A stretch of DNA of 64,000 nt, taken from assembly GCA_965222605.1 (NCBI GenBank), contig OZ244960.1:512001-576000 (forward strand), written 5' to 3'. The notes under the pieces are model-generated. The model saw only the letters and a list, made by a program, of their open reading frames with translations. It did no database searches and was not told the DNA's origin. Source of the stretch: Candidatus Latescibacterota bacterium. GTDB lineage: Bacteria > Latescibacterota > UBA2968. The position numbers were made by a program, and so were the translations under genes. The first letter of the stretch is position 1. Every line of letters starts with the position of its first letter. Below, one piece after another: positions 28,709 to 55,181 of this stretch.

Positions 28709-28717
28709 TTTGATTTT

Positions 28718-34822: not shown

Positions 34823-37039
34823 TTATCCATCCGGCCTCTGCCTTCTTTCTTGGATCAACACTTCCAACTCTCGCACAGCATTCACATCTCTCGTGATTTT
34901 CCGGTACCCATCCAACGCCGCCGCCGCATCCTCCTCCCGCCCGGTCTCTGCACAGACCAATGCCAAATTGTGATAAGGTACAGCATAATTGGGATCCGAT
35001 TCAATGGCTTTTCGGTACCAATAAATTGCCGCATCCAGAGAATCCCGAATAGTATATGTATCTCCCAGATCGGTATAATCCCGGGCTGTGCCGGGTCGGG
35101 TTCTGAACCGATTCACAATATCTGCCTCCCACAACTCGCACGCTCGGTGCAAAGGCGCGACCAGGATCGAATCTCTTGCCGCTGCTTCCCGCCACATTTT
35201 TACCGCCTCCGAGAATTGCTTGTTCCTGATAAACACGGTACCAAGCCCCGCATAAGCATCTGGCATTTCGGGCCAGACCTTCAGAGCCTGCCGGAACGCA
35301 ATCTCCCCAGACCGATCATCACCCTGTTGCAATGCATCAATGCCCACCTGCACCTGTGCCTCTGGGTCGTCGGCAAGAAGGTCTGTCACCATTGTTCGAT
35401 ATTCCGTCAGAGCCTTCGATAGCTTATCCCTGCGCGATAGATTCACACCCTCCAGCATCGAAGCCGCCCTTATACGCACCAATCGCGAAGGATCATCCAA
35501 CCGATCAATCACAGCCTCAATACCCGCATCTCTTCCCTGAACCATCAATCCCTCTATCGCCCGGGTGCGTACCATCGAATGTAGATCGTCCAGAGCGTCT
35601 ATCAAAGCCTTTTCAGCCCTATCATCTGCCTGCCTGCCCAGTAATACGGCTGCCGAAGCCCGCAACACCATGCTCTGGTCTTTCGAAAGCGCGATCAAAC
35701 CATCCAGAGCCTTTGGGTCCCCCACTCGTCCCAGAACAATTGCTTCGGCCTGAGCCACTTCATCTTCCTGTGAACCCCACCACGTCTTTACCCAGCTTGC
35801 CGCCCAGTTGGGGGTTTGATCGCTATGGCACCCGTTACACGCATTTGGAATGCCAAACCGAACCGTATTTTCCGGTACCGGCGACAGGATGCGGTGATCG
35901 TATATCCCAATGCGCTTCACTTCTTCTACAGGTGGCATATGGCAATCCACACACCCGACCGTCTTGTGATTGCTATGCCTTTCAACAGGCTCTCCCACAT
36001 CTATCCTGTGACAGTTCAAGCACACCCGATCATAGGTTGCAGCGCGGGTCTCGCCTTCCGCTCTCACAGGACCCAGATGGTGAGAATCGTGGCAACCTGC
36101 GCACGTCAGATGCCCCACCGTATAACACGAACTCATCAAAAAAGCCAGAGTGTTGTAGTTCAGCGCGCGGTAGCGTCCATCTGCCCAGAACTTTTCGCTG
36201 TCCAGCACTTCCAATTCGTAAAAGTCGTAAAACGGATCGCCCGGCTGATAGCCCTCCTTGATAATCCGCTTGTGCGCGTGGCACTGCGCGCAGACTTCTA
36301 CTGACTGTTCCGAACTCAAAAATTGCAAATTTACCAGTATCGTATCCCGCGCTGGCACCTGGTCCGGCAACGCTTTCCAAAATGCCACATGTTGGCCTCC
36401 AGGTCCGTGGCAGGTTTCGCAATTGATGCTCAAATCTGTCCAGCGCGTCGCGTAGGTTCCCGTCTCTGGATCGTAATTTTTTACAATCTGGCTGGCGTGA
36501 CAGTCGTGACACTGAAAATTCCAGTTCCGCCCAAAATTCGTCCAATAATTGACATCGCCCGGCGCAAAGCCCTGCGGGTGGTCGAACAACCCTTCCACTG
36601 GATCGAACCACGTCTGCTCCCGAACATCCCAATAGACCGGCAGCACCTGAATGCGTCCCCCCTCAAGCGTGGTCAAATACCACTGCGTATCCCGGTCTCC
36701 GATTGCGTATTCGACGGGATAGACCCCCCGCTTCCCGTTCGCGCCATCCGTCTCCATAAAATAGGTCCCGTCCCGCACAAACATACGAGAAGTCATTCCC
36801 CCATAAGTATATGTATTGTTCTGCGTAAAATCTCCCCGTACAGTTTCGATCGAAGGCACCTGCATTGATCGCCGATGCAACGACCCATGCCATTCTTTAT
36901 AAGAATCCAGATGACACGTTGCACACGCCTCTGCACCCGTATATATCGCTTTGGATGTTACTGACTGTGGCGCATCCTTCGCACATCCACATACCATCAC
37001 CAAAAAGAGAAGAGTCCTCTGGATCATTGCAAGCATCAC
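34823..37039 (-). CDS. Multiheme cytochrome c lipoprotein with HEAT and TPR repeats
   Basis: Eight CxxCH (CATCH, CHDCH, CETCH, CAQCH, CAGCH, CLNCH, CVDCH, CNGCH); lipobox VCGC; HEAT and TPR C-terminus. Confidence 0.9.
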   Translation of the reverse strand: MMLAMIQRTLLFLVMVCGCAKDAPQSVTSKAIYTGAEACATCHLDSYKEWHGSLHRRSMQVPSIETVRGDFTQNNTYTYGGMTSRMFVRDGTYFMETDGANGKRGVYPVEYAIGDRDTQWYLTTLEGGRIQVLPVYWDVREQTWFDPVEGLFDHPQGFAPGDVNYWTNFGRNWNFQCHDCHASQIVKNYDPETGTYATRWTDLSINCETCHGPGGQHVAFWKALPDQVPARDTILVNLQFLSSEQSVEVCAQCHAHKRIIKEGYQPGDPFYDFYELEVLDSEKFWADGRYRALNYNTLAFLMSSCYTVGHLTCAGCHDSHHLGPVRAEGETRAATYDRVCLNCHRIDVGEPVERHSNHKTVGCVDCHMPPVEEVKRIGIYDHRILSPVPENTVRFGIPNACNGCHSDQTPNWAASWVKTWWGSQEDEVAQAEAIVLGRVGDPKALDGLIALSKDQSMVLRASAAVLLGRQADDRAEKALIDALDDLHSMVRTRAIEGLMVQGRDAGIEAVIDRLDDPSRLVRIRAASMLEGVNLSRRDKLSKALTEYRTMVTDLLADDPEAQVQVGIDALQQGDDRSGEIAFRQALKVWPEMPDAYAGLGTVFIRNKQFSEAVKMWREAAARDSILVAPLHRACELWEADIVNRFRTRPGTARDYTDLGDTYTIRDSLDAAIYWYRKAIESDPNYAVPYHNLALVCAETGREEDAAAALDGYRKITRDVNAVRELEVLIQERRQRPDG

Positions 37040-37100: not shown

Positions 37101-37985
37101 CTATCTTTCCAAAAAAGTCTCAGACCATTTCGGCTCATAGTCGCTCTCGAACAACCAGTCAAAATTCTCGGGCACAATATGGGCGCGCTCGGGACGCAAC
37201 TTCTCTCGCAGCCGGGGAAAAAACGCCATTACCCCATCCCGCTGAATCTTCGGCAACCCGCAGGACACGCCCGTAGCGATCCATGACGTGCCCATCGCCT
37301 TGCGTGGCACCTTATCCTCATTCTGCCAGGCAGAATGCAATCCCGCACTGCACAAAACCAGAATCTGTCCTCGACGCGCAACAGCCGGAACCGGTTCCTG
37401 CTCCAGCCAGGGCGTATCAACCAGCTCGGGCACATGCTCGGGATAAGCCGACGCAGTATCCGACGGCTCTGGACGCAACCCGTGGACGCGGGGCAACATC
37501 GCCTTGTGCTCTGGTGTCAAAACCCGGCTCCAGTGTTCCATAATCGGACGATGACTACCCGGCAGAATGCGCATAGCCCCTCGATGATCGGGCACATCAT
37601 TGAGCCAGAACCACAACTCAGCGCGCATCCGTCGGGGCGTCGCCTGAAAATCATCCCATGTCGCCTGGATATCGACGTGGCATCCATTTCCCCATTGCTC
37701 GCGAACACTCGCAAAAGGTGCATTACTCGGTGCGCGCTCGTGGGGTGTCAACCCCCACCACAGATGTACGGACTCAGCCCGCAACACCTTCTTCGCGACC
37801 TCCTCAAAATAGGGATGCTGGACGACATCGACATAATCCGGATCTTCATAAGGCGGACGCCCGCTCGCCTTCAACCGATCCCAGGACGCTTCGGCGCGGT
37901 CCAACTCCTCGGTCGTAAAGGGACTGTCAATCGCAACCGCCCCTTCCTCCTCGTATTGTCTCATTTGTGCATCGGTAAATAGCAT
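37101..37985 (-). CDS. Phytanoyl-CoA dioxygenase (PhyH)-family Fe/2OG enzyme
   Basis: YEEEG, HVD, GAMRILPGSH, LHSAWQN...R. Confidence 0.8.
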   Translation of the reverse strand: MLFTDAQMRQYEEEGAVAIDSPFTTEELDRAEASWDRLKASGRPPYEDPDYVDVVQHPYFEEVAKKVLRAESVHLWWGLTPHERAPSNAPFASVREQWGNGCHVDIQATWDDFQATPRRMRAELWFWLNDVPDHRGAMRILPGSHRPIMEHWSRVLTPEHKAMLPRVHGLRPEPSDTASAYPEHVPELVDTPWLEQEPVPAVARRGQILVLCSAGLHSAWQNEDKVPRKAMGTSWIATGVSCGLPKIQRDGVMAFFPRLREKLRPERAHIVPENFDWLFESDYEPKWSETFLER

Positions 37986-38194
37986 ATGGTTTTCTCCCTC
38001 CGTTGCAGCAAAAATCATTCGAATCAGACGATCCTTGCCTGAATGAGCTTGTTTTCTTTTTCAGTTTATCGCCTCTCAGCCCAAAATTCAAGCCAAATAC
38101 CACGAGCTATACCTTGTGTGGGACAAGCCAATAGTCTATATTTCTAATAGCTCTTATTCTCAAAACTTTAGCATTTTTTGTGAAAGGCCTCTCG

Positions 38195-40663
38195 ATGAAC
38201 ACAGCCCTCAAATGTGTTGCACCCGCCCTGCTCTGTTTCTTGCTCTCTGCAACGCTTGCCGCTCAGGAAGCCCAGATTGACTCTCTCATTGCCCAGGGAC
38301 AGGCTGCCTTTGAAGCCAACAAAAAAGACCAGGCCATCAAAGCACTCACAGCAGCCATCAAACAGAATCCCGATAACATCCAGACCTACCTCGCCGTTGC
38401 CCGCATATACATCAAGGCGGAGTATCTGAACCACGCGATGAAGGCATTCAAAGAAGCCCTCAAACTCAATGATGCCTCGCCAGAAGCCCAGACCGGCATT
38501 GCAGAGATCTACTATAAAAAAGCCTCTGGCGGGATCATGGCTGTTTACCATGCCCGCAAAGCTGTCAGCGCGGCCCGGCGCGCCACCCGACTCGACCCCA
38601 CCTACGCGTCCGCCTACGTCCTCCTCGGTCGCGCTTATATCCGCCTGAATGAGAACCACACGGCTGCCTCGCGGGCTTTTGCACAGGCATTGACACACCA
38701 GCCCGACAATCCCGAAATCGCCTACCTCCTGGGCACTTCCTATATTGAACTGCGCCGCAATGCCGAAGGTCGTCAGCGCGACAGCCAGATGATCCTGAAC
38801 GAATCCACCCTCAAAAACCTCGGACACCACCTCGAAAATGCTCGCTTCCTCCCCATCGCCGCGCAGATACTCTTCGATAAAGGAGAGCCGGAAAAAGCCC
38901 TCAATATCTTTGAGCAATTCATCGCCACCCTGCCTGAAACAGAACGGGCCTACTACGACGACATCGCCAGGGTGGGAACCAAAGAAGAAATCAAAACCTA
39001 CGAAGCAACCCCCGAAGCGGAACGCCCCGCCTTCCTCGAACAATTCTGGGCCAAGCGCGATTTCGATTTGCTCACCGAAGTCAACGAACGCCTTATCGAG
39101 CACTACCGCAGGGTGTGGTATGCGCGAAACCACTTCGCCGAAGCCAAAACACCCTGGGATGCGCGGGGAGACATCTATATCCGCTACGGCGACCCCGACT
39201 ACCGCGCGCGTTCTGGCAGGGCCAACCCCGAAATCACGCCCGCCGTAGAACAGGTCAAAGAACGTCTCGCCCTGGCCCTCTATGGTCCCGAAGCGATGGA
39301 CGAAGTTTTTACCGGGCCGGTCTATCCCATCCGTTCCAACCAGTCTTTTGTGGGCGAACTCGATCCCGCGGCTCTCGCACGCACCGATGAAGGCGGCAAT
39401 ATTCTCGTACCCCCCGGCACATTTGAAGGCAACCAGGACGAATTCGTCCTCACAGAAGCTCTTGGGGCAGATGGGGAGGCAAGCGGTGAAGTCGGAGAAA
39501 TTGGGCAGTTGGCCCTCGACGAATACCAGCGGCGGCAGATGCGCCCCGAAAACCAGCACCACTTCTTGCCCGTCACCTCACGAGGCGACATGACCATTGT
39601 GTCCTGGGAAACCTGGGTCTATACCCACATCGGAGAAGGCATCGAAATCACCTTTACCAACGAGTTGGGCAGCGGTGTTTACAGCTACGCACCACTCCCC
39701 GACTTTCCCCACGAAGAAACCACCATTGGCCTTCACCGGTACTCACTCCTCGCGTATTACGCCCCCGAGGCCATCGCCAACCGCACGGTCAGCGAAGTCC
39801 CCGACTTTTACACGCCCGGCGGCCCCATGTCAGGGCTTGGCTTTCACTATGACTTTGCAGACTTTCGCGGGTCAGATGGCACCACCCGCCTGGAAATCTA
39901 CTACGGCATCGATCCCATAGAAATGGGCACCTTTGCTTCGGGCGACACCTCCACAATTGTCGCTGACTGCGCCGTCATCCTGGCCGACACCTCCTACACG
40001 AACGTTTACCGCTCACAAGACGCCATCTTTTACCGGTCTATCGGCCACCGCATGTGGCCCGAAGGCTCCTTCATCCCCACCCTCATCCCAATCGATGTTC
40101 CCCCCGGCAACTACCTGCTCACAGTACAGGTCAACGACCGCGCTGCCGAACGCAAAGGTATTTATCGCCATCAAGTACACGTTGAGCCTTATCAATCCAA
40201 CGCCTTGCAACTCAGCGACATCCAGCTAAGCTGGAACATCTCGGAAAACCCGGGTGACGAAAAATTCCGCAAAGGCGACGTCTGGGTCGTGCCTATGATC
40301 TCCCGCGCCTATCAGAAAGACCAGAGCGCGTATGCCTATTACGAACTCTACAACCTCACCCGAAACGAATTTGGGCAAACCCGCTATCGCGTCACCTATA
40401 CCATTACCGTGGAAGATCCAATACGCCCCTTCAATCTGGTCCGCAGCAGCGTTGGTGCGCTTGCCAGGATATTTCAGCGGCAGGACAGAACGCAGGTCAA
40501 AGTCAGCTTCGACCAGACCGGCAACGAACAATCTATCGCCGGGTATTTTGAACTCAGCTTGAAAAAAGTCAAAGCCGGTTACAACCGCCTCACCGTCACA
40601 GTCGAAGACCTCAACAACGGACAAAAAGCCGCCAAAGAAATCCAGTTCAGATATAAAAAATAG
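38195..40663 (+). CDS. TPR + GWxTD-domain exported protein (copy A)
   Basis: Signal peptide, TPRs, FW..RD...NE...EHYRRV.YA...F...WDARGDIYIRYGDPD, LQLSDI. Confidence 0.88.
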   Translation: MNTALKCVAPALLCFLLSATLAAQEAQIDSLIAQGQAAFEANKKDQAIKALTAAIKQNPDNIQTYLAVARIYIKAEYLNHAMKAFKEALKLNDASPEAQTGIAEIYYKKASGGIMAVYHARKAVSAARRATRLDPTYASAYVLLGRAYIRLNENHTAASRAFAQALTHQPDNPEIAYLLGTSYIELRRNAEGRQRDSQMILNESTLKNLGHHLENARFLPIAAQILFDKGEPEKALNIFEQFIATLPETERAYYDDIARVGTKEEIKTYEATPEAERPAFLEQFWAKRDFDLLTEVNERLIEHYRRVWYARNHFAEAKTPWDARGDIYIRYGDPDYRARSGRANPEITPAVEQVKERLALALYGPEAMDEVFTGPVYPIRSNQSFVGELDPAALARTDEGGNILVPPGTFEGNQDEFVLTEALGADGEASGEVGEIGQLALDEYQRRQMRPENQHHFLPVTSRGDMTIVSWETWVYTHIGEGIEITFTNELGSGVYSYAPLPDFPHEETTIGLHRYSLLAYYAPEAIANRTVSEVPDFYTPGGPMSGLGFHYDFADFRGSDGTTRLEIYYGIDPIEMGTFASGDTSTIVADCAVILADTSYTNVYRSQDAIFYRSIGHRMWPEGSFIPTLIPIDVPPGNYLLTVQVNDRAAERKGIYRHQVHVEPYQSNALQLSDIQLSWNISENPGDEKFRKGDVWVVPMISRAYQKDQSAYAYYELYNLTRNEFGQTRYRVTYTITVEDPIRPFNLVRSSVGALARIFQRQDRTQVKVSFDQTGNEQSIAGYFELSLKKVKAGYNRLTVTVEDLNNGQKAAKEIQFRYKK

Positions 40664-40680
40664 AGAGATGGCAAAATCAA

Positions 40681-40713
40681 AAAAAGGCGACCGAAAAACT
40701 CGGTCGCCTTTTT
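40681..40713. terminator. Bidirectional intrinsic terminator
   Basis: AAAAAGGCGACCGA-aaaac-TCGGTCGCCTTTTT between convergent genes. Confidence 0.88.
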
Positions 40714-40732
40714 ACATGCTCAACACAACGAG

Positions 40733-41674
40733 CTAAAATGCAAAGCCCACCCCAAACCGCAAGGGTGTATTCAGATCGTGTTTGGACTGCTGCCACGCCA
40801 CATCCGCCGTGATCTTTGTCCCGACCAGGGGCAACTTCACGCCTGCACCTGCTGTAACCCCAAAGGAATCGTAGCGGAACATATATCCTGCCCGCAGCGC
40901 CAGCATATTGCCCACCCAGGCTTCGCCGCCCACATGATAGCGCTCTTCCCAGTTGATCAGGAAGTTCATCTCAAACGCCCCGGTGATATAAAACGGATCG
41001 CCTTGCTGCCCATAGACCTCGGCAGCGGTTCCCAGATTGAACGACAGAGGTTGCTGGAACTGCCGCCGCAACACCACTGTGTCCTTTCCGAAGTTCCGCA
41101 ATGCCATTGACAGTCTCAGGCTGCCAAGCCCGGTGTAGAACTTGGTGCCGAAATCCACATTGAAAGTCGTGTGGTTGGTCAGGTCCAGATCCTCGCGAGC
41201 CAACATAAATCGGATGCCAAAGGACAGCTTGTCCGTGAACTTGCGGCTATAAATGAGACTAAAAGCCGATGTGCCCAGGCTGAGGATTCGACCCGTGCCT
41301 CCCGGCTGCAAAATCGTGGTCTCCTCTACATCCTCTGGCTTAAAGGTCAGGATACTGACCCCGATGGTATGCACACCGCTTGTATAAGCTATAGCCCCGG
41401 TGTTGAATTTAGAATTTACGAACCACATCGAATGGCTCAGCGACACTTCCACTTTCTCCACACCCGTCATACCGGCCGGATTCCACCACGCGGCATTGAC
41501 ATCGTCTGCGATAGTTGCATAAGCACTCCCCATTGCCACGGCTCGAGGGCTTTGCGCCACCGCAAGGGGTGAGAAGATTGTCAAGTCCGGCCGCTTGATA
41601 AGCCCACCTGCATCTGCTGGAACAGCCATCAGTGTCGTGGCGAGCACGCAGATGACAAAAACTTTTTTATACAT
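40733..41674 (-). CDS. PorV/PorQ-family outer-membrane beta-barrel
   Basis: Signal peptide, SPRAVAMGSAY...DVNAAWWNPAG, ALRAGY, terminal Phe. Confidence 0.85.
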   Translation of the reverse strand: MYKKVFVICVLATTLMAVPADAGGLIKRPDLTIFSPLAVAQSPRAVAMGSAYATIADDVNAAWWNPAGMTGVEKVEVSLSHSMWFVNSKFNTGAIAYTSGVHTIGVSILTFKPEDVEETTILQPGGTGRILSLGTSAFSLIYSRKFTDKLSFGIRFMLAREDLDLTNHTTFNVDFGTKFYTGLGSLRLSMALRNFGKDTVVLRRQFQQPLSFNLGTAAEVYGQQGDPFYITGAFEMNFLINWEERYHVGGEAWVGNMLALRAGYMFRYDSFGVTAGAGVKLPLVGTKITADVAWQQSKHDLNTPLRFGVGFAF

Positions 41675-41726
41675 ACTTGCACTCCTTATTCAGAGGGGCG
41701 ATAGGCACAGACCTACCGCCCGCCGA

Positions 41727-44231
41727 TTACCTGACAGATCCCCCGACCACCACAAATGTCCCGCGCTGGATCTTTCCATTGCTTTCTGGCGTCAGGGACT
41801 TCACCACGAAGAAATAGACCCCGGCCGGAACCTGTCCTGTCACCGCCTTGGTGAGCTGGATATATTCCGCTTCTCCAACCGTCGGATTATCGTGGTCAAA
41901 CTCCGACATCAGATCTCCGGAAACCGAGAAAATCTTCACATTGCACCTGGACGGCAAATTCACGAACCGAATTTTATCCGACCCTTCATAAGCGTGAGAA
42001 CCATCGGCCAAAAAGGGATTGGGCACCACAGACACCTTCGCTTCCAGGCGTTCGGCCTCTGCATAAGCGGCCACTGCCGGACTCGTGGGTATCCATGAGT
42101 ACCGGAAGAACTGCTCGGGAGCAGATAATCCGCTCTCCAGCCCGCTCTGCACCGACTGCTGGGCAGCCGGTGGCAAATCGGACAGCGTCTTGCTGCCATC
42201 GCTACTGGTCCAGGTGCTGTGCCCGGTGTCATAAGCCGTCACCGCATAGTAGTACGCAAATCCGGCCAGAGATGTATCGTCGGTGTAAGAATACCGATCA
42301 CCTTCTTTGTGGGTTGCGTCTCCGACCTTGATATCCTTCAGGAGTTGCCAGTTGTCGAAGTAAAAATCGCTGCGGTAAAGCCGGTAGCCTGCAATATCCT
42401 TGGCCTCGGCAGTACCCGCATAATCGGGATCTTCCAGATCGTCGATGCTCTGCCAGCTAATTTTGGCCGTAGCTGCCGGTGTGTTCGCGATCCAGGTGTG
42501 GATATCCGGCGGCGGGAGTGGCACATCGCCGCCCAGTTCGTACATCGCCTGTGCGTGCTGTGCGTGCCTCATCAAATTCCGCATGGCCTTGTCCGTGTGC
42601 AAATCGGCCTGATTCTGCGGGATATTCCGCTGCCAGCCCCACATATTTTCCTCTACTGGCATCGATGCTGTAAAAGCCGTCACGATCTTCACGCGGTCTC
42701 CTCTTTGCAAATCGTAGGGACCATAAGTGTGAGAAAACGCATGCCAGTTGGGCGACATGGGTTGCTCGGGAGTCTCGCCCCGTCGCGTGGGGTTGTCCTG
42801 CACTGGCAGAGGTGCAGTCGGATTGTCCGGCCAGCCCGTGCGTCCGGCGATATTGTACATGCTCACCCGCTCGCCCGGCTTAGCCACCGACACCAGCGCA
42901 ATACCGATCTCGTCGGTGCTGTGCCGGTTGATGTCCGGTTCTTCTTTGTGGGTGAACCACGGCGCAGCAAAGGGCTGCTCTGCCACCTTTGGAGCTATGT
43001 AATTTGCATAGTCGTCGTTCACAAAAGGCGGCGTGTAGTCAATCGGAATCGCCCCCACGTACTGCCCGGCCAGGAGTTCTCCGCGCAGTTGGAAGTTCAG
43101 CCGCCCCCAGCAGCACTGGCTTTCTGGCTGGTGGGGGTCGCCCGCATCGTCGTGCGCCGTCAGCGGAGAGTCCCAGTCAAACGCATAGCTCATCTTCATG
43201 CCCACAGCGTCAGCCACATCCGCGTGATTCGGGTCAGCTGTCCCATAGTTAGCCGCCTCGGTGTAGCGGTACACATCGTCCTGGATCACATTGTAGTTCT
43301 CCGACTCTTGCCGGCGCAACAGCCAGTAGTAGTACCCGCGCGCTCTATCTACGCGGTCGCGGTTGGCTGTGCCGCCTTCTGTGGGCCAGAAATAGTTGTA
43401 AAACGCGAAATAGACATCCTTCAGGTTCAGTCCAGCACCCCCGTTCAAGTCGGCAACGCCATCGCCGTCGGAGTCTCCCGTGTTCTCAAACACATTCTCC
43501 ACAATGATGAAGTCGTCCCAGTCACGGAACGTCCACTGGTAGATCTTCTTCGTGCCCTGGATCCCGGCCTCTGTCGTCCACTTGGCAATCGCCACCAGTT
43601 CTCCAAACCGCTTGTGCTCTGGCTTCATATACGTATGGAAATCCCAGTTGTGGATCTCCACAATATTGTCCACACCCGGGTGCGGCTGCCCCGGATACCA
43701 GTTCTTGGCCTCCGCGATCGGAATTCCCTTGAGCGGATGCTGAGGATCCATCCCCACACCCATTTGCCCTTCGATTTCCGTACTCACTGGATACGCCATC
43801 GGCGTGATATCCGGGCTGGTGGTCAAGCTCGTAAACGATACCACGAGTTCTTTGCCGCGCGAGGGCGTGTATTCTGATGGGTCGGGCCTGGTAATAATAA
43901 ATGTTCCCAGGCTCCGCGCTGTGGCCGTTCTCAGCAAATAGTTTTGCACCCACTGATTGGACCCCGGCCATCCGCGACTATCCCACAAACTGCCCGGCAA
44001 GCGGTTGCGACCCGGGTAGGTCACGCCCTCCATGCTGGCGCGCCGGCTCCCATCTCGATCCGGACCGTGCATGCCCGTGTTCATCAGCCCCGTCCAGAGC
44101 TTGCTGCGCCGCAGGTTGCGCCACGGTAGCCGAGGAATATTCTGAGCGGCTACCTCGCAGGCCAGCGACATCACAAAGATTCCCACAAGGATTGCCCCGG
44201 CCGTGCGAGAAAATTTCGCATACATTTTCAT
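41727..44231 (-). CDS. Large exported protein with fn3-like domain and T9SS type A CTD-like C-terminus
   Basis: Signal peptide from ATG 44231; DIAGYRLYRS...YYYAVTAYD; VSVVPNPF...IRFVNLP..C.VKIFSVSGDL...AGVYFFVV. Confidence 0.8.
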   Translation of the reverse strand: MKMYAKFSRTAGAILVGIFVMSLACEVAAQNIPRLPWRNLRRSKLWTGLMNTGMHGPDRDGSRRASMEGVTYPGRNRLPGSLWDSRGWPGSNQWVQNYLLRTATARSLGTFIITRPDPSEYTPSRGKELVVSFTSLTTSPDITPMAYPVSTEIEGQMGVGMDPQHPLKGIPIAEAKNWYPGQPHPGVDNIVEIHNWDFHTYMKPEHKRFGELVAIAKWTTEAGIQGTKKIYQWTFRDWDDFIIVENVFENTGDSDGDGVADLNGGAGLNLKDVYFAFYNYFWPTEGGTANRDRVDRARGYYYWLLRRQESENYNVIQDDVYRYTEAANYGTADPNHADVADAVGMKMSYAFDWDSPLTAHDDAGDPHQPESQCCWGRLNFQLRGELLAGQYVGAIPIDYTPPFVNDDYANYIAPKVAEQPFAAPWFTHKEEPDINRHSTDEIGIALVSVAKPGERVSMYNIAGRTGWPDNPTAPLPVQDNPTRRGETPEQPMSPNWHAFSHTYGPYDLQRGDRVKIVTAFTASMPVEENMWGWQRNIPQNQADLHTDKAMRNLMRHAQHAQAMYELGGDVPLPPPDIHTWIANTPAATAKISWQSIDDLEDPDYAGTAEAKDIAGYRLYRSDFYFDNWQLLKDIKVGDATHKEGDRYSYTDDTSLAGFAYYYAVTAYDTGHSTWTSSDGSKTLSDLPPAAQQSVQSGLESGLSAPEQFFRYSWIPTSPAVAAYAEAERLEAKVSVVPNPFLADGSHAYEGSDKIRFVNLPSRCNVKIFSVSGDLMSEFDHDNPTVGEAEYIQLTKAVTGQVPAGVYFFVVKSLTPESNGKIQRGTFVVVGGSVR

Positions 44232-44255
44232 GTCATATCCTCTATTAAGTTGGAT

Positions 44256-44286
44256 CCGCGGTGTGGACACTCCGCCCACACCGCGG
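44256..44286. other. GC-rich intercistronic hairpin without U tail
   Basis: CCGCGGTGTGG-9 nt-CCACACCGCGG between the TBDR and cargo genes. Confidence 0.6.
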
Positions 44287-44298
44287 CACTGTGCCTGC

Positions 44299-47200
44299 TT
44301 ACCAGGTCAACCGCAACCCTGCAAATACCAAACGCGGATCGGTCCTCGTATATCTGCTCAACTCACTGGCATCGCCGCCGAACTGCACGAACAACGGATT
44401 GGTAGGCTGTGATTCAAGCAATCCCCACCGCACGTAGTCTGCGCTCGTGGATGGCGAGCCTTTGAAATTGAACAAATTTTCGATCTCCACATAAAGCAAC
44501 GGGCGGATGCCCCTGATGTTGAACCCTTTCTGGAAGCTGAAATCTACCGACGAGATCGTGGGACCCTCTTTCTTCAGGTTCAGACTGGTTTTCGGATCCT
44601 GGAAATCGAAGATTCGCCCCGTGAAGATGCGGTAGATCATGTTCACCCGAACATCGCCGAACAGCTTGCTGCCCCAGAACATCTCGCCGGGACCAAAATC
44701 GGGTGGGCTGGCATAGACCAGCACCAGGCTCCCATTTGTCCGCGTGGCATCGCTGCGCCCACCTTCCACACTCCAGCCCGTCGTCGAAAAGGCGTAAAGC
44801 CCCCGCAGCGCTGCCTGTTCCTCACTGGACAGCCCGCTCTGCTCCCACAGGGGATAAAATTTCCCATCGTTGGTCGCATACATCGCACCCACGCCGAACT
44901 CGCCAGCCAGACCCTTATCTACTACCTCCTGCGCCTTTGCCTTCAATTCCTCCAGCTTGGCGCCGGTCGGCGGAGCGGGGATCTCTGCACCCGTATTCGG
45001 GTCAATCGTGTAACTGACCCAGTACCGGTTGGGATCGGCAATATACGATGCATCCGGATAAATATTGCCGCCCATATTGCCCCGCTTGGTGCCGCCAATG
45101 GTCAGGCGCTCGCCCCAGCCCAAGTTGAGTGCGGCTTTGAACGAGAAGTTGTGCTTCAACCCCTTCTTCAATGCCAGTTCGATACCACGGGTCGTGGTGT
45201 GGCCTCTCGGACCCTGCGAACGAGTCTTGGCCTTGCTACCAATCTGTGGGTCCTGGAAGCGAGCAGTATTAACACTCAAAAATCCATTGGTGATGCGGTA
45301 ATAGGCAGTGCCCTGGAAGGAATAGTCGCTGATGAAATTCCACTCCGTGCCCAGTTCAAAAGCCGTAGAGACCTGCGAATGCTGCAAGGAGAAGAACTGA
45401 TCAATCACAAATCCCGAGCCAAACGAGTCGTTGCGGACCAGGCTGTTGTTGTACTCTTCAGCACTGATGTTTCCATCGTTGTTGTGGTCGATCGAGTGCG
45501 GTCCCGTCGCCCGCCAGTTCTGCTGGTATATCCGGCGGAAATCCGGACGGGTGTGAAACTTCCCGTAGAAGAAATGAATCTTCGACTTGGCCGTAATCGG
45601 GTGCGATATCCCGACCCGGGGCATAAACCAGTTCATCGGCTGCATATCGCCATACATCGTATGGTTCCGGAAGCGCGTGTAGTTGTAGCCCATCGGCGCG
45701 CCCTGATAGGGATGGAGGGGAACCACTCCGCCGCTATACCGCTCGTAGCGGAAGCCCGCATTGATGATCAGTCCTTCAAACTCCATCTTGTCCTGCACAT
45801 AAGCGTGGAGCTCGGTGGGCGTAATCCCCACACCGGGTTCATAGCGCTTGCCCCAGTAAATCAGCCATCGATTCCGCTCATCCACATCTTCGTAGGTCTC
45901 GGTCTTCCAGTTGTCGTAGCGATAAAATGTAAAACCGCCCTTCAGAAAGTGCGTGCGAGTCACCTGGCTGGCCAGATCGAACCGCGCTGCCAGCTTGTTT
46001 TGCTGCCCGACGCGCAGATCCCGCACCTGCCCGGAATCGGTGTAGTACCACCCATCATCGTCTAAGGATGGATTCACCGTCGTGCTGGGAATGTCAATGG
46101 TGTCCTGCTTGCTGGCAATATACGACAGCCTCACTTCGTAAAATGTCTTTGCCGATAGGGTGTGGATGCTGGACACATAAAACATGTTGTCCGTCACCTG
46201 CCACTCACCCCCATAGCGTCCGCGTTCTTCCAGGAAAATCGCCCTGGAATTAAAGCTGTCTGCATAGCGACCTTGGCGGCTGGAATACAGCCCACCCACA
46301 CGGAGCTTGATATCGGGTGTGGCGCTATAGGTTACTTTGTAGCTCACATCCGCGTTAAATGGCTCGCGCTCAGTCGGCTGGGGCAGGTTCCGGGCCTGAA
46401 TATCGTGCTTTGTAGTGGCAAAGAACGACAGATCACGGTTAATAGGCCCCGAAAGAGATGTCTCTAAAAAATGCCCTTGCACATCTGTATAATCGCTCGA
46501 AGGCCGCTGATGCACCTTCCGACCATTGGCTGTTTCATTGGCCCACTCAGAATCGCCATATTGCAGCCGACCCTGATGTACGAAGCTATCGTAAGCATTG
46601 TTGCCCCAGTGCTTCTGTTGCGCTGGCGAGTACCGATAGTGAAACTGTCCGTGGTAGTCCCGACCGCCATCTTTGGTTACAATCTGGATAGAGCCGGTAT
46701 TGCCATATTCGGCATTCAACCCGCCGGCCAGCACCGTGATCTCTGAAATCGCCGACGTATTGACATCGCCGCTCCAGTTCTGCGTGCCCCCACGGGTGCC
46801 TGTCCCACGCCGACCATCCGAGTGCGTCATACGCACACCATCTACCATATACTCGGCCACTTCACCGCCATTGCCCACAAAGGCATTGCGGATGCGATTT
46901 GTACCGTCGGTATTGACCCCCGCCTCCAGCTCGATAAAGGAATCCAGATCGCGGACAATGGGCAGCACTGCAATATCCTCGGCGGTCACCACATAACGGC
47001 TTGCCGTCACATCTGCCTCCACCGGAGGCCGCTCTGCAATCACGGTCAACTCACCCAGTTCCAGAGCTGCTTCATTGAGCGAGAAATCAACTGTCGTCGT
47101 CAGATCCGACGCAACCCGCACATCGGACCTGGTCGCACCCGTGTACCCAACCATCGACGCCTTCACTGTATAACTCCCCGGATCGACAGACAGGACAAAA

Positions 47201-47391
47201 TAATACCCCTCCCCATCAGTTGTTGCCCCACGGGTCGTCCCCTCCACCAACACGTTGGCACCCGGCAGAGCCTCTCCAGCCTTATCGACTATACGGCCAG
47301 TAATTTTTCCCGTTGTTGCCGCCTCGGCCAGGCTGACAAAACCGAGGGCAAAAATCATAACGAGAACAAAACCCAGACATTTTCTGTACAT
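44299..47391 (-). CDS. TonB-dependent receptor with N-terminal carboxypeptidase-regulatory-like domain
   Basis: TTGKITGRIVD..GEALPGANV; YMVDG; GGLNAEYGN; MPRVGISHPIT; C-terminal PRLVFAGLRLTW. Confidence 0.9.
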   Translation of the reverse strand: MYRKCLGFVLVMIFALGFVSLAEAATTGKITGRIVDKAGEALPGANVLVEGTTRGATTDGEGYYFVLSVDPGSYTVKASMVGYTGATRSDVRVASDLTTTVDFSLNEAALELGELTVIAERPPVEADVTASRYVVTAEDIAVLPIVRDLDSFIELEAGVNTDGTNRIRNAFVGNGGEVAEYMVDGVRMTHSDGRRGTGTRGGTQNWSGDVNTSAISEITVLAGGLNAEYGNTGSIQIVTKDGGRDYHGQFHYRYSPAQQKHWGNNAYDSFVHQGRLQYGDSEWANETANGRKVHQRPSSDYTDVQGHFLETSLSGPINRDLSFFATTKHDIQARNLPQPTEREPFNADVSYKVTYSATPDIKLRVGGLYSSRQGRYADSFNSRAIFLEERGRYGGEWQVTDNMFYVSSIHTLSAKTFYEVRLSYIASKQDTIDIPSTTVNPSLDDDGWYYTDSGQVRDLRVGQQNKLAARFDLASQVTRTHFLKGGFTFYRYDNWKTETYEDVDERNRWLIYWGKRYEPGVGITPTELHAYVQDKMEFEGLIINAGFRYERYSGGVVPLHPYQGAPMGYNYTRFRNHTMYGDMQPMNWFMPRVGISHPITAKSKIHFFYGKFHTRPDFRRIYQQNWRATGPHSIDHNNDGNISAEEYNNSLVRNDSFGSGFVIDQFFSLQHSQVSTAFELGTEWNFISDYSFQGTAYYRITNGFLSVNTARFQDPQIGSKAKTRSQGPRGHTTTRGIELALKKGLKHNFSFKAALNLGWGERLTIGGTKRGNMGGNIYPDASYIADPNRYWVSYTIDPNTGAEIPAPPTGAKLEELKAKAQEVVDKGLAGEFGVGAMYATNDGKFYPLWEQSGLSSEEQAALRGLYAFSTTGWSVEGGRSDATRTNGSLVLVYASPPDFGPGEMFWGSKLFGDVRVNMIYRIFTGRIFDFQDPKTSLNLKKEGPTISSVDFSFQKGFNIRGIRPLLYVEIENLFNFKGSPSTSADYVRWGLLESQPTNPLFVQFGGDASELSRYTRTDPRLVFAGLRLTW

Positions 47392-47413
47392 CGAAAAACC
47401 TCCTTAGTGAGAA

Positions 47414-48112
47414 CTACCAGTAATATTTAATCCCGCCCACCAGATCTATCGCCTGCATTGGGAAGACTTTTTCAAGCCCCCAGTCCTCCAGGGGACGGAG
47501 TTCGCCCATAATCACATTATACCGCAAGCGGAGATCGATCACAAATTGCTCGGACCCCACGATGCTGATCCCACCTCCAAATGAGAACGTCAGTGCTGCC
47601 ACCTTGTCGTGAAAGGCGGGATTTAGAACGCTGGTATCCAGGGACGTTCCCGACTGCCCGGGAAAAACCAACCCCGACACCTCATTCGAAAATCCGAAAA
47701 ACCCGACGCCACCCATTATATAAGGCGATGTGCCTTTGCCCACTTCCTTGAAATGGAGCAGGGCGCTGGCGACCAGGCTATTGAACGTCACGCCTTGATC
47801 GACATTTGGACTGCGGTAGTTCTGGCTATCAATCGGCCAGGTGAACTCTCGTGTATCCAGATCGCCGCCCAGCATCGAAGAATAGTGATACTCAATCTCG
47901 GCGACAACTCTCGACGAGGCTATATAGTTGTAGCTAAGTCCCAATTTGGGAGAGGCAGAGTACCACTCGCCAAATTTGAACAACGGTACGTTTGCACTCC
48001 CGAAAAACCCGATCCCCGACTGGCCTTCTTCTAAGGCTCCAGCCGTGGAAACCGAGACCAGAACCGCCCCAGTGAGACATAGTATTCTAAACATCGCTCT
48101 CAACATCCGCAT
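47414..48112 (-). CDS. Small outer-membrane beta-barrel protein
   Basis: RBS AAGGAGG, signal peptide, SPYIMGGVG, terminal Trp. Confidence 0.8.
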   Translation of the reverse strand: MRMLRAMFRILCLTGAVLVSVSTAGALEEGQSGIGFFGSANVPLFKFGEWYSASPKLGLSYNYIASSRVVAEIEYHYSSMLGGDLDTREFTWPIDSQNYRSPNVDQGVTFNSLVASALLHFKEVGKGTSPYIMGGVGFFGFSNEVSGLVFPGQSGTSLDTSVLNPAFHDKVAALTFSFGGGISIVGSEQFVIDLRLRYNVIMGELRPLEDWGLEKVFPMQAIDLVGGIKYYW

Positions 48113-48347
48113 AAGCTGGCCCTCCTTTGAGATGGTAAAAAATACAACACGGTATCGCACTCAATTCAAATACTCCTCCTTTCTCCGGCTCAATTTATTC
48201 ATAAAACTTATTTTCACGCCCTCCCGCTGATTTTTAGATGGTTTTAACTCCAAACTGATAATGAGGATAAACTATTGACTATTATTTACTTATATTAAAT
48301 TTCTAATATAGTCACAAATTTTCACTTATATCATCAACAATATGCAT

Positions 48348-48394
48348 TAAAATTTCTCCCAATGTCAAGTGTTTTTTTGATCGTTCTTCACCTT
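48348..48394. repeat. Copy of a lacI 3' end and downstream sequence
   Basis: 40/47 nt identical to 55149-55195; its last 14 nt match 53849-53862 at 13/14. Confidence 0.8.
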
Positions 48395-49149
48395 GCTATC
48401 TGAGTCATTAAAATCCAAGTCCTTCGTTAGTTCGTAGCCCGTGCAGATAGACTGGGGACAATCCATCCCAGAAGGCGCAAGGGGAAATGCCAAATCATAA
48501 CTATTCGCATTGTTCGCATCGTCAACTGCGCCGTTACCATCCAGATCATAGCGGATGGCGTTTAGTCGCTCCAGGTTGGATACCTCAATGAGGCCATCAT
48601 CGTCATCGTCGTAGTCAAACAACGGCGTTCCGACCATTGTTGCCGACCATGCGCTACGAACACTCGTTTTCTTAGCTCTAACCTGTACATCGTAACCAGA
48701 GCCACCGACCAGACCGTTGATCGTATATTCAAAGTTATCACTCGTTCCGGCATTCCTAACCACTGTCCAGTTGCCGCTAACTGTCTCGTCATCGCTGGTG
48801 AGAATGTAGCGCACGTCATACCCAGTAATGTTGCTACGGAGCGGATCACTCAAGGCAACCCTGAGTGATCGGGCTCCCGGCGTCACACTGGAAATGGTCG
48901 GCACGCTGAGCACCGTCGCTCCTTCGCCCAGTTCAGACCATTCTCCCTGCCCTTCGGCATTGGTCGCCCCGCACCCGTATCTCGTAATTCGTGCCCTCCT
49001 CCAGGCCCATGATCGTTATGGTCTTATCCCTGATGGAAGCATTCGCATCGATAAATGCATCGTTGCGCCCACTGCTTCGGTATTGTATGTCGTAGCTAAT
49101 ACCAATATCAATACGTCCGATTTTTTCCGATTGACCGCCCAGCTCCGTC

Positions 49150-49810
49150 CAGTATAGCTTGTTCCTTGCGATGTCCAGCGCAATGCCAAATGGGTCCCCT
49201 AATCCCGTGGCGATAAGGTCTTCGACATTTCTACCATTGAGATCAGCACGCTGGACTTTATCCGTACCACGGTCCGCCCAGTACATCTTGTTTCCTGCGA
49301 TATCCAGCGCAATACCAAATGGATCCTCCAATCCCGTGGTGACGAGGTCTTCGACATTTTCGCCACCGAGATCAGCACGCCGAATTCTATCACTGATTGC
49401 CCAGTACATCTTGTTCCCTGCGATGTCCAACGCAATACCCCCAAATTTATCCGGCAGTCCCGTGATGAGGTCTTCGATATTTTCACCATTGAGATCAGCA
49501 CGCCGGATGCGACCAGAGCCCGTCCAGTACATCTTGTTCCCTGCGATGTCCAACGCAATACCCCCAAGTTTACCCGGCAGTCCCGTGATGAGGTCTTCGA
49601 TATTTTCACCATTGAGATCAGCACGCTGGACTTTATCCGTATAGAGATCTACCCAGTACATCTTGTTTCCCGCGATATCCAACGCAATGCCCACAGGAAA
49701 TTGCACCGCATCCCGAATGAGGTCTTCGACATTTTCACCGTCGAGATCAGCACGCCGGATGCGACCAGAGTCCGTCCAGTACATCTTGTTCCCTGCGATG
49801 TCCAACGCAA
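49150..49810 (-). repeat. Coding tandem repeats of about 123-129 bp (YWTD/LDLR class B)
   Basis: Six (I/V)ALDIAxNK(M/L)YW units; the units starting near 49401 and 49524 are nearly identical DNA. Confidence 0.85.
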
Positions 49811-50274
49811 CGTCAATTGGATTAAACATAGAAACATTATCTGTATTCAATACTGAAGGGGAGTCCCCCCAGATAATGGTCAAGGTAGTCATGGTTGCCT
49901 GCGTCACTGTCGGCGCATCTAATTCCGGGGAGCCTATGTCGGTCACTATGACAGTTATTGCCTGTGTTGCTGTCAATGCTCGACCATTCTCACCACTCAT
50001 CGCTGTGACCTCTACGATATATGCGTTGTTGGTATCCGCATCCAATGGAGCCTCAAAATCTGGTGCGGCTTTGAAGATCAACACACCTGTTTCTGAAACA
50101 ATGAAGAACTGAGTTTGATCTGCCCCGCCAGTAATGGCATAACTGGTGACGCTGTCGTCGCTATCGGCGTCATTGGCAACCACTATGCCGACACCTGTCA
50201 CATTTTCCAGCACATTGAATGTCGCATTGCTCGTGAAGACCGGCGCAACATTAACCTTCATCTTCCCTTCACCT

Positions 50275-53780: not shown

Positions 53781-53853
53781 TTTACATTGTGCATTTGGGT
53801 CGAACGAGGTTTATCTGGCAGGACCTGTCCTCGTTCGGCTTTTATTTTTCATT
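53781..53853. repeat. 73-bp direct repeat with hairpin, copy 1
   Basis: 70/73 identical to 54987-55059; stem GTCGAACGAGG/CCTCGTTCGGC plus T-rich tail on the + strand. Confidence 0.9.
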
Positions 53854-54877: not shown

Positions 54878-54986
54878 TTGCTAATCCTTTCGCCAGGCAA
54901 GTAACATAGATGCTGCCTGATCGGTTTTGGTTTTTTCTGTCGCTTAATGCTCTCCCTTAAACTATATTGTAGCCAACACGATGTGG

Positions 54987-55059
54987 TTTACATTGTGCAT
55001 TTGGGTCGAATGGGGTTTGTCTGGCAGGACCTGTCCTCGTTCGGCTTTTATTTTTCATT
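54987..55059. repeat. 73-bp direct repeat with hairpin, copy 2
   Basis: See copy 1. Confidence 0.9.
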
Positions 55060-55072
55060 ATACAATACATAA

Positions 55073-55128: not shown

Positions 55129-55181
55129 GTACTATTTGAACATTTCCATAAAATTTTTCCCAATGTCAAGCATTTCTTCGA

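Follow-up and report, generated by a model that had tools for sequence, protein, structure and literature searches.

Four adjoining genes in the 64,000-nt stretch of Latescibacterota DNA analyzed here (the window) appear to specify a conserved outer membrane (OM) nutrient-capture module of Latescibacterota and neighboring FCB-group phyla, in which a protein docked on a beta-barrel through its C-terminal domain (CTD) would be the surface partner of a TonB-dependent receptor (TBDR), a reading to which we give a probability of about 0.5. Among TBDRs of the FCB group, the one well-understood means of gaining a substrate-capturing partner is, to our knowledge, a SusD-type surface lipoprotein. If the reading is true, anchoring by a barrel and a CTD would solve the same problem in a second way and would link the fields of secretion and nutrient uptake. 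A literature search found no description of such a cassette.

The exported cassette occupies 40733-48160 on the - strand and comprises, in order, a small OMP beta-barrel (47414-48160; 248 aa from the GTG at 48160, with an ATG at 48112), the TBDR (44299-47391, 1030 aa), a protein termed here the cargo (41727-44279, likely start 44231, 834 aa), and a short PorV/PorQ-family barrel (40733-41674, 313 aa). The genes are separated by 22 nt (OMP/TBDR), 19-67 nt (TBDR/cargo) and 52 nt (cargo/barrel), and all four stop at a two-way terminator-like hairpin (40681-40713, both strands; 15-pair stem with T-runs on both strands) common to a convergent gene for an exported TPR-GWxTD protein (GWxTD1, 38195-40663, + strand). 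The outermost genes have their ATG starts at 38195 (TPR-GWxTD) and 48112 (OMP), and a hydrophobic signal-like N-terminal segment is present in all five proteins. The small OMP, which ends in ...KYYW, matches OMP_b-brl weakly (E 0.0015). The preliminary description of this DNA had reported precisely such an OMP-TBDR-cargo-PorV arrangement convergent on GWxTD and lacking SusD, and both statements hold, with no SusD family match among the window proteins scanned. The same scan of window proteins found no T9SS core gene (SprA/Sov, PorK/L/M/N, PorU). The host phylum is Latescibacterota and not Bacteroidota.

The cargo is built of a signal peptide, an N-terminal domain of ~540 aa that belongs to no known family, an Fn3 domain, a linker, and a putative, divergent T9SS-type CTD that forms a C-terminal beta-sandwich (residues ~734-831); Fn3 followed by a beta-sandwich is also seen in its AlphaFold model. 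The window cargo has no match to any Pfam or NCBIfam family, and the Por_Secre_tail and TIGR04183 CTD models gave nothing at E <= 1. Among 16 members of the cargo family, sub-threshold matches were obtained to Por_Secre_tail (PF18962, Pfam) in five and to TIGR04183 in seven, seven weakly matched the CTD end of PorZ, and three matched CHU_C. Type A CTD motifs (PNP, GxY) are visible in the cargo alignment, and hhalign paired the cargo CTD (86% probability, E 5e-6) with the C-termini of four proteins from cassette neighborhoods that match FlgD_ig and/or Por_Secre_tail above threshold. The N-terminal domain matched 407 cluster representatives (E <= 0.001; 1.84 billion searched), and distant relatives of its core sit in multidomain proteins, with Por_Secre_tail in 9 of 28 sampled (7 above the Pfam cutoff); structure comparison of this domain gave no convincing relative (TM 0.2-0.32).

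The short barrel belongs to the PorV/PorQ family (NF033709, 145.3 bits against a cutoff of 90, E 3e-42, residues 34-313), and a profile of 20 relatives matches the solved PorV 6h3i_F (E 2.1e-21). The protein has 313 aa vs 402 in the solved chain. It lies far below the equivalog cutoffs for PorV (NF033710, 44.3 of 250 bits), PorQ (NF033711, 59.1 of 220), and PorV2 (NF052325, 52.1 of 325), of which PorQ is the best match, and the PorP/SprF and Slam/DUF560 families are absent among its matches at E <= 0.01. When the barrel was modeled with cargo residues 572-834, the cargo CTD was predicted to dock on it (ipSAE 0.90; three controls 0.00-0.01), in agreement with the anchoring that the preliminary description had envisaged. 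Of the solved complexes, 116 of 157 attained the 0.90 mark, as did 2 of 215 mismatched pairs; these counts are only rough because the analysis's own alignments were used for the complex model. Contact agreement in these runs was at least 80% and partner pLDDT at least 61, and the named cargo contacts (including PNP, D743, H746, Y748, and G772) all fall within the CTD. Interface positions are slightly more conserved than the remainder in the CTD (0.65 vs 0.56, p ~0.04) and not in the barrel (0.62 vs 0.64). PorV-cargo complexes have already been solved, and so the score may stem from resemblance to them and not from binding by this copy. The same concern would favor a reading in which the docking is a modeling artifact and the PorV-like protein, binding no CTD, serves beside the TBDR as a substrate channel of the FadL type, as do a weak Toluene_X match (FadL family, E 2e-7) and a match to UPF0164. 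Such a channel is nevertheless very improbable, given that the PorV/PorQ model scores far higher, that the predicted interface is made by the most conserved motifs of the CTD, and that the controls scored so low.

A genome-collection scan with the cargo profile yielded 61 loci from the best 80 of 170 matching stretches, in records titled Latescibacterota, Gemmatimonadota, Calditrichota, and KSB1, with cargo identities ranging from 97% down to 30%. In 60 of the 61 loci listed the TBDR lies immediately upstream of the cargo and the PorV-like gene follows, a recurrence that excludes a chance arrangement; the remaining locus (L025) stops just after the cargo. An OMP homolog is found upstream of the TBDR in 44/61. 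Chromosomes carry at least 1-3 cassettes, the counts being lower bounds because of that cut at 80 of the 170 stretches.

The window itself holds part of a second cassette, the GWxTD/PorV-like junction recurring at 61187-64000. Here, a second TPR-GWxTD paralog (GWxTD2, 61094/61187-63625, + strand) faces a second two-way terminator-like hairpin (63661-63684, both strands, 10 pairs) and the 3' end of a PorV-like gene (63711-64000, - strand) that leaves the window; the C-terminal fragment that it encodes (63711-63998) shares 63% identity with the first barrel. The PorV-like fragment is identical at 95 of 95 residues to the barrel of locus L015 (L015:12503-13465), and GWxTD2 is 98.4% identical to the L015 gene beside a complete second cassette. 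The preliminary description had considered that the second porV might lack accompanying cargo and TBDR genes, but in the close relatives L014, L015, and L018 genes for cargo, TBDR, and OMP lie ahead of it. The cassette is real and does recur. Identity between cassettes 1 and 2 is 67-69% for the OMP, 60% for the TBDR, 63% for the cargo, 57% for the barrel, and 67% for GWxTD, and matrices of pairwise identity for the five proteins are correlated at r = 0.97-0.99, as is expected from linkage alone. The cassettes were duplicated en bloc in tandem and their components have co-diverged. Each has its own PorV-family barrel, as the preliminary description had proposed, but a strict one-to-one pairing is weakened by L052 and L055, where one barrel accompanies two or three cargo paralogs, and by an invariant core of the predicted interface that is common to all cassettes.

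The cargo might instead be an ordinary enzyme or adhesin of a canonical T9SS, carried by a paralogous PorV shuttle and then released or linked to LPS, with the TBDR a mere neighbor in a substrate-utilization operon and not a physical partner. As far as we know, Bacteroidota have a single general PorV, in contrast to the own barrel of each cassette, and this difference, the gene order retained down to 30% cargo identity, and the co-divergence of the components as units make such a role unlikely. It would fit the CTD homology of the cargo, the PorV family membership of the barrel, and the many CTD-bearing genes in cassette neighborhoods, and one report allows for a T9SS in further phyla of the FCB group (PMC11285876).

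The TBDR combines a CarboxypepD_reg extension (2e-19), a plug (1e-7), and a very divergent barrel, an Oar/SusC-type architecture. The extension (PF13620 plus PF13715) occurs in 19/19 TBDR members, which makes them Oar-type in architecture only, a layout common to many importers, and Plug PF07715 occurs in 18/19, while the barrel model PF00593 is matched by 1/19. In the PDB, the TBDR profile matches FepA, Cir, and YncD (5e-15 to 4e-10) through their plugs only, and a TonB-box-like 'EMVVVAER' is conserved in the TBDR consensus. The score against SusC/RagA (TIGR04056) is 69.9 bits, far short of the cutoff of 368, and stems from the N-terminal 250 residues only.

Further clues to function come from the surrounding genes. 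Downstream on the - strand are a PhyH-family dioxygenase gene (37101-38018, family match), seen downstream in 11/61 loci listed by phmmer and in 5/13 representative loci by Pfam, and a multi-pass DUF6785/DUF6784 membrane protein (31948-33903; Pfam 3.7e-109, ~10 hydrophobic segments), which is a candidate inner-membrane permease of the locus. A relative of the latter follows the cassette co-directionally in 45/61 loci listed, and all 48 matches are co-directional; a second such protein, recognized by Pfam and its hydrophobic segments, lies further downstream (22205-24151, - strand). The first of these, linked to the cassette, was overlooked in the preliminary description. Two LacI-family regulators (53849-56210, - strand, family match) are found upstream on the same strand, as are co-directional LacI genes in 9/61 loci listed, and genes nearby encode LacI/GntR regulators, oxidoreductases, dioxygenases, and some glycoside-hydrolase- or lyase-like proteins. 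Because a DUF6785/DUF6784 protein, LacI/GntR regulators, and catabolic enzymes adjoin the cassette, the locus looks like one for nutrient uptake.

We propose only provisionally the following route. The TBDR would import a candidate substrate across the OM, and the 834-aa cargo would cross the inner membrane by Sec and reach the cell surface, where its uncleaved T9SS-type CTD would stay docked on the cassette's own barrel in the manner of PorZ with PorQ, PorU with PorV, and type B cargo with PorP/SprF. The large N-terminal domain may then capture or process substrate beside the TBDR, making the cargo a putative SusD analogue with the role of SusD and other surface lipoproteins in Bacteroidota, or of TbpB or hemophilin in Slam/T11SS loci. 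From there, the linked DUF6785/DUF6784 protein could hand the substrate on to enzymes of the cytoplasm, with LacI or GntR regulators in control, and the TPR-GWxTD protein would be an exported accessory in about half of the cassette lineages.

Transport might also run outward, with an Oar-type TBDR exporting the adjacent CTD protein using TonB energy and the barrel receiving and anchoring it, import being secondary if it occurs. Export would account for every cargo having a TBDR and a barrel of its own, and for the strict linkage of the three genes, without a T9SS core, of which no gene was found among the window proteins scanned, and it suits both the Oar architecture and a barrel unusually divergent from those of importers. 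However, the linked DUF6785 protein, regulators, and catabolic genes fit import; PopC, which Oar exports, is not known to carry a CTD, and we know of no PorV-like partner of Oar. On balance export seems improbable. The Oar TBDT of Myxococcus xanthus does share the CarboxypepD_reg extension, plug, and barrel of the cassette TBDR and is needed for PopC secretion, but the same N-terminal arrangement dominates ordinary Bacteroidetes importers (PMC6434023). Doubtful as well is a broader proposal, that the cassettes are autonomous display/uptake units that need no T9SS core, in which an Oar-type TBDR and a mini PorV-like barrel would export, dock, and use a CTD co-receptor; in that case, PorV-CTD recognition would represent an older, modular device of the FCB group that Bacteroidota later built into the T9SS, and barrel anchoring would offer another way to do what SusD-type lipoprotein lids do.

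The nutrient-capture module has partial parallels in known systems, and a private barrel is itself known from PorQ-PorZ and from PorP/SprF with type B cargo. In Porphyromonas gingivalis, a PorV/PorQ-family barrel holds a surface partner via an uncleaved CTD (PorQ-PorZ, PorV-PorU; PMC10202324). The cassette resembles these pairs in the PorQ-leaning barrel and in the weak PorZ CTD matches of 7/16 cargo relatives, but the barrel is under all equivalog cutoffs, the cargo N-terminal domain is unrelated to PorZ or PorU, and the pair is multi-copy, embedded with a TBDR, and in Latescibacterota. Type B CTD cargo, whose CTD is probably uncleaved, is encoded side by side with its own PorP/SprF barrel, the proposed surface anchor (Flavobacterium, P. 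gingivalis PG1035; PMC10202324); the cassette likewise pairs a cargo with an adjoining barrel, but one with no PorP/SprF match and with a TBDR as part of the unit, and its CTD looks closer to type A, yet with CHU_C in 3/16. As in the SusC-SusD/utilisome loci of Bacteroidota, a TBDR with a carboxypeptidase-regulatory-like extension adjoins the gene of a putative surface partner, and regulators and catabolic genes are close by, but no SusD match was obtained among the proteins scanned, the TBDR is far from the SusC/RagA cutoff (69.9 vs 368), and the partner would be a barrel-anchored CTD protein, not a lipoprotein. Slam/type XI loci (TbpB-TbpA; HrpABC) unite barrel, cargo, and TBDR, with TPR involved (PMC8406197), and the likeness is one of locus logic (an OM barrel, a cargo targeted through a C-terminal domain, a TBDR served by that cargo as co-receptor, TPR). 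The systems are not homologous; the cassette barrel is not DUF560, and its TPR, found only in some loci, belongs to a GWxTD protein encoded separately. A T9SS review restricts CTD proteins to Bacteroidota (PMC10202324), in contrast to the PorV-family barrel and CTD pairs that are multi-copy in Latescibacterota and present also in Calditrichota and KSB1. The cassette suggests testable roles for the cargo N-terminal domain and the DUF6785/DUF6784 and GWxTD families, and the three- or four-protein complex is a concrete candidate for cryo-EM.

The place of the TPR-GWxTD protein is looser than was first suggested. Both window copies carry the GWxTD domain (TIGR04514, 58.9 bits for GWxTD1 and 57.2 for GWxTD2, cutoff 28), with GWxTD1 just under the Pfam PF20094 cutoff (24.5 vs 26.9 bits). 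The expected linkage in other genomes is present in 28/61 loci listed, in three arrangements, and missing within 10 kb of the remainder, and hence the protein is better regarded as an accessory than as an obligate assembly factor, or as the dedicated periplasmic one of the preliminary description, the more so as GWxTD look-alike clusters are commonest in Gemmatimonadota, WOR-3, and Acidobacteriota. In the window proteins, the GWxTD motif reads PWDxRG.

Five long genes span positions 38195-48160 of the window by ORF calling, four on the minus strand and the fifth convergent on them. The four minus-strand genes, spaced 22, 19-67 and 52 nt apart, encode a small outer membrane protein (OMP; 47414-48160, with an ATG at 48112; 248 aa) with a weak match to OMP beta-barrels, a TonB-dependent receptor (TBDR; 44299-47391; 1030 aa) that combines a Plug domain with an N-terminal CarboxypepD_reg extension, a putative exported protein here termed the cargo (41727-44279), and a PorV-like barrel (40733-41674; 313 aa). 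The cargo ORF comprises 850 aa, and translation probably begins at 44231 to give 834 aa, as in a 97% identical relative (P0001); no Pfam or NCBIfam family was assigned to it in the scan of the window proteins. The convergent gene, which runs from 38195, encodes a TPR-GWxTD protein of 822-827 aa (GWxTD1) with a signal peptide and TPR repeats that scores 58.9 bits against TIGR04514 (cutoff 28). Between its stop codon and that of the PorV-like gene lies a 15-pair hairpin (40681-40713) flanked by T-runs on both strands. All five proteins open with a hydrophobic signal-like segment and the barrel proteins of the cassette terminate in aromatic residues. ORF calls, family models and hairpins reproduce to the base the gene layout and the recurring GWxTD/PorV junction of the preliminary description. 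A conserved A-x-A-Q ends the signal peptides of both the cargo family and GWxTD (window positions 44150-44231 and 38195-38270, and family alignments), and this recalls the 'Q-rule' reported for substrates of Bacteroidetes signal peptidase I (PMC5837995).

The barrel exceeds the cutoff of the PorV/PorQ family model (145 bits versus 90) and falls below those of the PorV, PorQ and PorV2 equivalogs (44, 59 and 52 bits; cutoffs 250, 220 and 325). A profile of 20 such barrels matches the solved PorV of Flavobacterium johnsoniae (6h3i_F) with an E value of 2e-21 and at both protein ends; that the barrel is instead a FadL-like channel is very improbable. A single complex prediction, in which the barrel was combined with cargo residues 572-834 using a separate alignment for each, gave a score of 0.90, compared with 0.01 for the best of three controls. 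The mark applied is one that 116 of 157 solved complexes attain, as against 2 of 215 mismatched pairs; these figures are approximate here since our own alignments were used. At least 80% of the contacts agree across three runs, with a partner pLDDT of at least 61, and all of the named cargo contacts in the model fall within its C-terminal domain, leaving the Fn3 domain uninvolved. Because PorV complexes have already been solved, this predicted pass indicates likeness to a known binding mode and is not proof of binding by this copy. Invariant positions of the predicted interface are W84, E117, E118, P124, G126 and P209 on the barrel and PNP, D743, H746, Y748 and G772 on the C-terminal domain, and variable positions ring this invariant core. 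When conservation of the predicted interface was compared with that of the remainder, the barrel showed no signal and the C-terminal domain a marginal one, and therefore neither cognate specificity, as implied by the private barrel of the preliminary description, nor a universal interface is concluded.

An AlphaFold2 model of the cargo (37 aligned relatives; mean pLDDT 80.5, pTM 0.84) consists of a signal helix, a beta-rich N-domain of ∼540 residues, a helical stalk with a conserved DVPxPPPD at its end, then an Fn3-like domain (∼579-668), a linker and a beta-sandwich (∼734-828), the latter carrying the conserved motifs VVPNPF, IRFxNLP, IFSVSGxL, GxYFFVV and GTFxVV in that order. The window cargo itself matches no model of a T9SS-type C-terminal domain (CTD) at E ≤ 1. 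Within a set of 16 family members, sub-threshold matches were seen to Por_Secre_tail in five and to CHU_C in three, and there were matches to TIGR04183 in seven and to the CTD end of the PorZ model in seven. Profile-profile comparison with the CTDs of four proteins encoded by neighboring genes, all of which match FlgD_ig above threshold and two of which also pass the Por_Secre_tail cutoff, gave 86% probability (E 5e-6) over 68 columns. From these family-level similarities the C-terminal domain is read as a divergent, putative T9SS-type CTD. Sequence-profile searches of PDB chains with the cargo and with its C-terminal part returned no match, and a fold search with the full model, which retrieved tandem-Fn3 matches to the C-terminal domains only, was set aside. 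The N-domain was not assigned to a fold family, as the fold search with its model gave weak matches only (TM 0.2-0.32), to beta-sandwich regions in enzymes of GH94, GH116 and GH65, in copper amine oxidase and in cyclic glucan synthase. At E ≤ 0.001 it has 407 cluster representatives in a set of 1.84 billion (45 at E ≤ 1e-30), and in the ESM Atlas it falls only in 'hypothetical protein' clusters, most commonly of Fidelibacterota, Zixibacteria and Gemmatimonadota. Its core (profile positions ∼165-489) is found again inside larger proteins, and of 28 sampled, nine match Por_Secre_tail (seven above the Pfam cutoff), together with BNR/sortilin, beta-helix or RCC1 domains; this company fits a role of the N-domain as an extracellular module.

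In the TBDR family, the N-terminal extension occurs in 19 of 19 and the Plug domain in 18 of 19 members, and the standard barrel model matches one of 19. With the family profile, matches were obtained to the plugs of FepA, Cir, PirA, YncD and PqqU as well as to the N-terminus of a SusC homolog, and a TonB-box-like EMVVVAER directly precedes the plug in the consensus. The window protein scores 69.9 bits on the SusC/RagA model, far from its cutoff of 368, and no SusD gene was found near the cassette. It has the domain layout of the Oar subclass (PMC6434023). That the TBDR of the cassette exports its cargo, for which export of PopC by Oar is the precedent (PMC6434023), is an unlikely alternative to a role in uptake. 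In the accessible portion of the 2015 Latescibacteria genome paper, Plug-domain proteins are named only as candidate receptors for the uptake of vitamin B12 and iron by a TonB-dependent route (PMC4454575).

Relatives of the complete cargo are few, with only 18 at E ≤ 0.001 in a set of 5.8 billion protein clusters. Scanning the cargo alignment against one genome per species gave 199 pattern matches, 170 of them encoding a relative, and the best 80 of these 170 yielded 61 loci (L001-L061), in which ORFs were called and searched with the window proteins and then with HMMs built from the matches. By their record labels most loci are from Candidatus Latescibacterota, several from Gemmatimonadota, two from Calditrichota or Caldithrix and one from KSB1; the nearest encode cargos 93-97% identical to that of the window, and several chromosomes have at least two or three cassette loci, which are lower bounds as the best 80 of 170 matches were used. 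In 60 of 61 loci the genes for TBDR, cargo and PorV-like barrel follow one another in this sequence, all oriented alike; the exception is L025, whose sequence stops 155 bases past the cargo gene. A reading of the cargo as an ordinary substrate of the T9SS, with the TBDR simply a neighbor, is improbable. The proteins scanned in the window included no T9SS core component. The other FCB phyla that the introduction of one paper names as possibly having a T9SS do not include Latescibacterota (PMC11285876). The small OMP lies 5′ of the TBDR in 44 of 61 loci; one further locus, L020, is cut within the TBDR. In two loci lacking it (L034:5045-6499 and L042:5049-6482) a protein of ∼480 aa with a weak neutral-ceramidase N-terminal match is encoded directly 5′ of the TBDR, and in L047 (3993-5423) the same protein lies 5′ of a retained OMP. 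The Caldithrix and KSB1 loci L052 (13241-15751) and L055 (9959-12496 and 12696-15194) have one or two extra cargo paralogs after a single PorV-like gene, so that barrel-to-cargo ratios of 1:2 and 1:3 exist.

A second cassette enters the window by its 3′ end, with GWxTD2 (61094/61187-63625, plus strand; 67% identical to GWxTD1), a 10-pair hairpin (63661-63684) and the final 95 codons of another PorV-like gene (63711-63998, minus strand; 63% identical to the first barrel). L014, L015 and L018 carry the whole paralogous cassette, with OMP, TBDR, cargo (63% identical to that of the first cassette) and barrel convergent on GWxTD2, followed as in the window by an fn3-domain gene and then the first cassette. 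The barrel fragment is identical to that of L015 at 95 of 95 residues and GWxTD2 is 98.4% identical, and thus in the nearest relatives the second porV noted in the preliminary description does come with cargo and TBDR genes. The five genes of the two cassettes diverge to a like degree (57-69% identity), and pairwise-identity matrices of the five proteins across all loci correlate with r = 0.97-0.99. Judged from these comparisons, the cassette is duplicated en bloc and unshuffled; such correlations are also expected from linkage alone and are not evidence for physical contact.

Of the 61 loci, 28 have a full-length GWxTD gene no more than 10 kb away, as a raw count. It is convergent and just downstream in 17 loci of one clade, which includes the window, co-directional and just downstream in six loci of another single clade, and co-directional and upstream in five loci of at least three lineages. 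An apparent further 'GWxTD-like' gene that scores 315-331 bits upstream in L056-L061 was dropped as its alignment is confined to the TPR region, and weak matches of 19-74 bits, which are also TPR matches, were left uncounted. Linkage in three arrangements together with duplication en bloc in the clade of the window argues for a functional tie of GWxTD to the cassette; that 32 of the 60 triplet loci open to assessment (L025 excluded) lack it argues against an obligate role as the dedicated assembly factor of the preliminary description. The GWxTD profile matched only TPR proteins in the PDB, with no solved relative beyond the TPR part, the C-terminal part falls only in 'hypothetical protein' clusters of the ESM Atlas, most commonly of Gemmatimonadota, WOR-3 and Acidobacteriota, and no mention of GWxTD was found in the literature searched.

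Linkage to the cassette is stronger for a DUF6785/DUF6784 protein, which in the window has 651 aa and about ten hydrophobic segments and is encoded downstream of the cassette (31948-33903, minus strand), with a second copy at 22205-24151 (minus strand). A relative is present in 45 of 61 loci, and all 48 matches are co-directional with the cassette, 45 of them downstream; this strong, co-directional linkage suggests that the protein is a candidate for the inner-membrane step of an uptake route. The best-supported reading, to which we assign a probability of about 0.5, is that the cassette is an outer-membrane capture-and-import module. The CTD protein would be exported, its CTD would remain docked on the PorV-like barrel of the cassette, its N-domain would act beside the TBDR, and the substrate would pass on via DUF6785/DUF6784. 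There are precedents for such docking, as PorZ is kept on PorQ and PorU on PorV, while type B cargo is kept on cognate PorP/SprF barrels encoded adjacently (PMC10202324). A parallel logic is seen in Slam/T11SS loci, which combine a barrel, a cargo with a C-terminal targeting domain and a TBDR (PMC8406197), and there the cargo serves the TBDR as a co-receptor or hemophore, with involvement of TPR domains (PMC8406197). The parts are of known kinds, namely the PorV family, CTD and TBDR, and what is new is their combination, copy number and phylum. No description of the cassette or of DUF6785 was found in the literature searched, nor was such a cassette described in that on PorV-like barrels or, by titles and the beginnings of abstracts, in the listed papers on PorV, TBDR, SusD and T9SS; searches for Latescibacter with type IX secretion gave no match.

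In the window, a PhyH-family dioxygenase (37101-38018, minus strand) and a 738-aa protein with multihaem cytochrome c motifs, HEAT and TPR (34823-37039, minus strand), the latter conserved there in the clade of the window, are encoded downstream of the cassette. LacI regulators are upstream and co-directional in the window and in 9 of 61 loci, with GntR/FCD regulators in others. In 13 representative loci, Pfam neighbors include GFO/IDH/MocA oxidoreductases, PhyH dioxygenases, homocysteine-S-methyltransferase-family enzymes, hydantoinase, creatininase and M20/M24 peptidases, and some GH130-like, GH127, GH42M, heparinase II/III and polysaccharide deacetylase genes. Rfam at gathering threshold gave no RNA family in the whole window, and hence no riboswitch hinting at a substrate.

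Between the LacI genes and the cassette is a gene for a 1600-aa exported protein (48365-53735, minus strand) with LRR, fn3, cadherin, LDL-receptor class B and dockerin/EF-hand-like matches, followed in a different frame by a 182-aa fn3 ORF without a signal peptide, and the two may be one frameshift-split gene. The pair is missing at that site in the close relatives L001 and L015, and related repeat proteins are encoded downstream of cassettes in L034, L036, L041 and L048. Around the second DUF6785/DUF6784 gene is a run of FG-GAP/ASPIC-UnbV proteins (15009-30395, minus strand), of which two bear rhamnogalacturonan-lyase-11-like parts and one bears a 3-keto-disaccharide-hydrolase-like part, accompanied by a PD40 propeller and a TPR-thioredoxin protein. 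A gene pair kept in relatives lies between the two cassettes (56440-58687, plus strand): one gene joins TPR to an FGE-sulfatase-family part, and the other is of the di-haem cytochrome c peroxidase/MauG family. Their ORFs overlap as called, and the peroxidase domain begins only at residue 239, so that the true start of the second gene is probably later. Elsewhere are a cyanophycin-metabolism-associated-like ABC transporter (832-3669, plus strand; 674 bits, below the cutoff of 880) with a DUF1854 partner, and a TIGR04283 arsenosugar-biosynthesis glycosyltransferase (12924-13598, minus strand; 231 bits, cutoff 182). Every 2-kb bin of the window has a negative GC skew (−0.07 to −0.38), and the long genes lie almost all on the minus strand, which accounts for the many long spurious ORFs on the plus strand.
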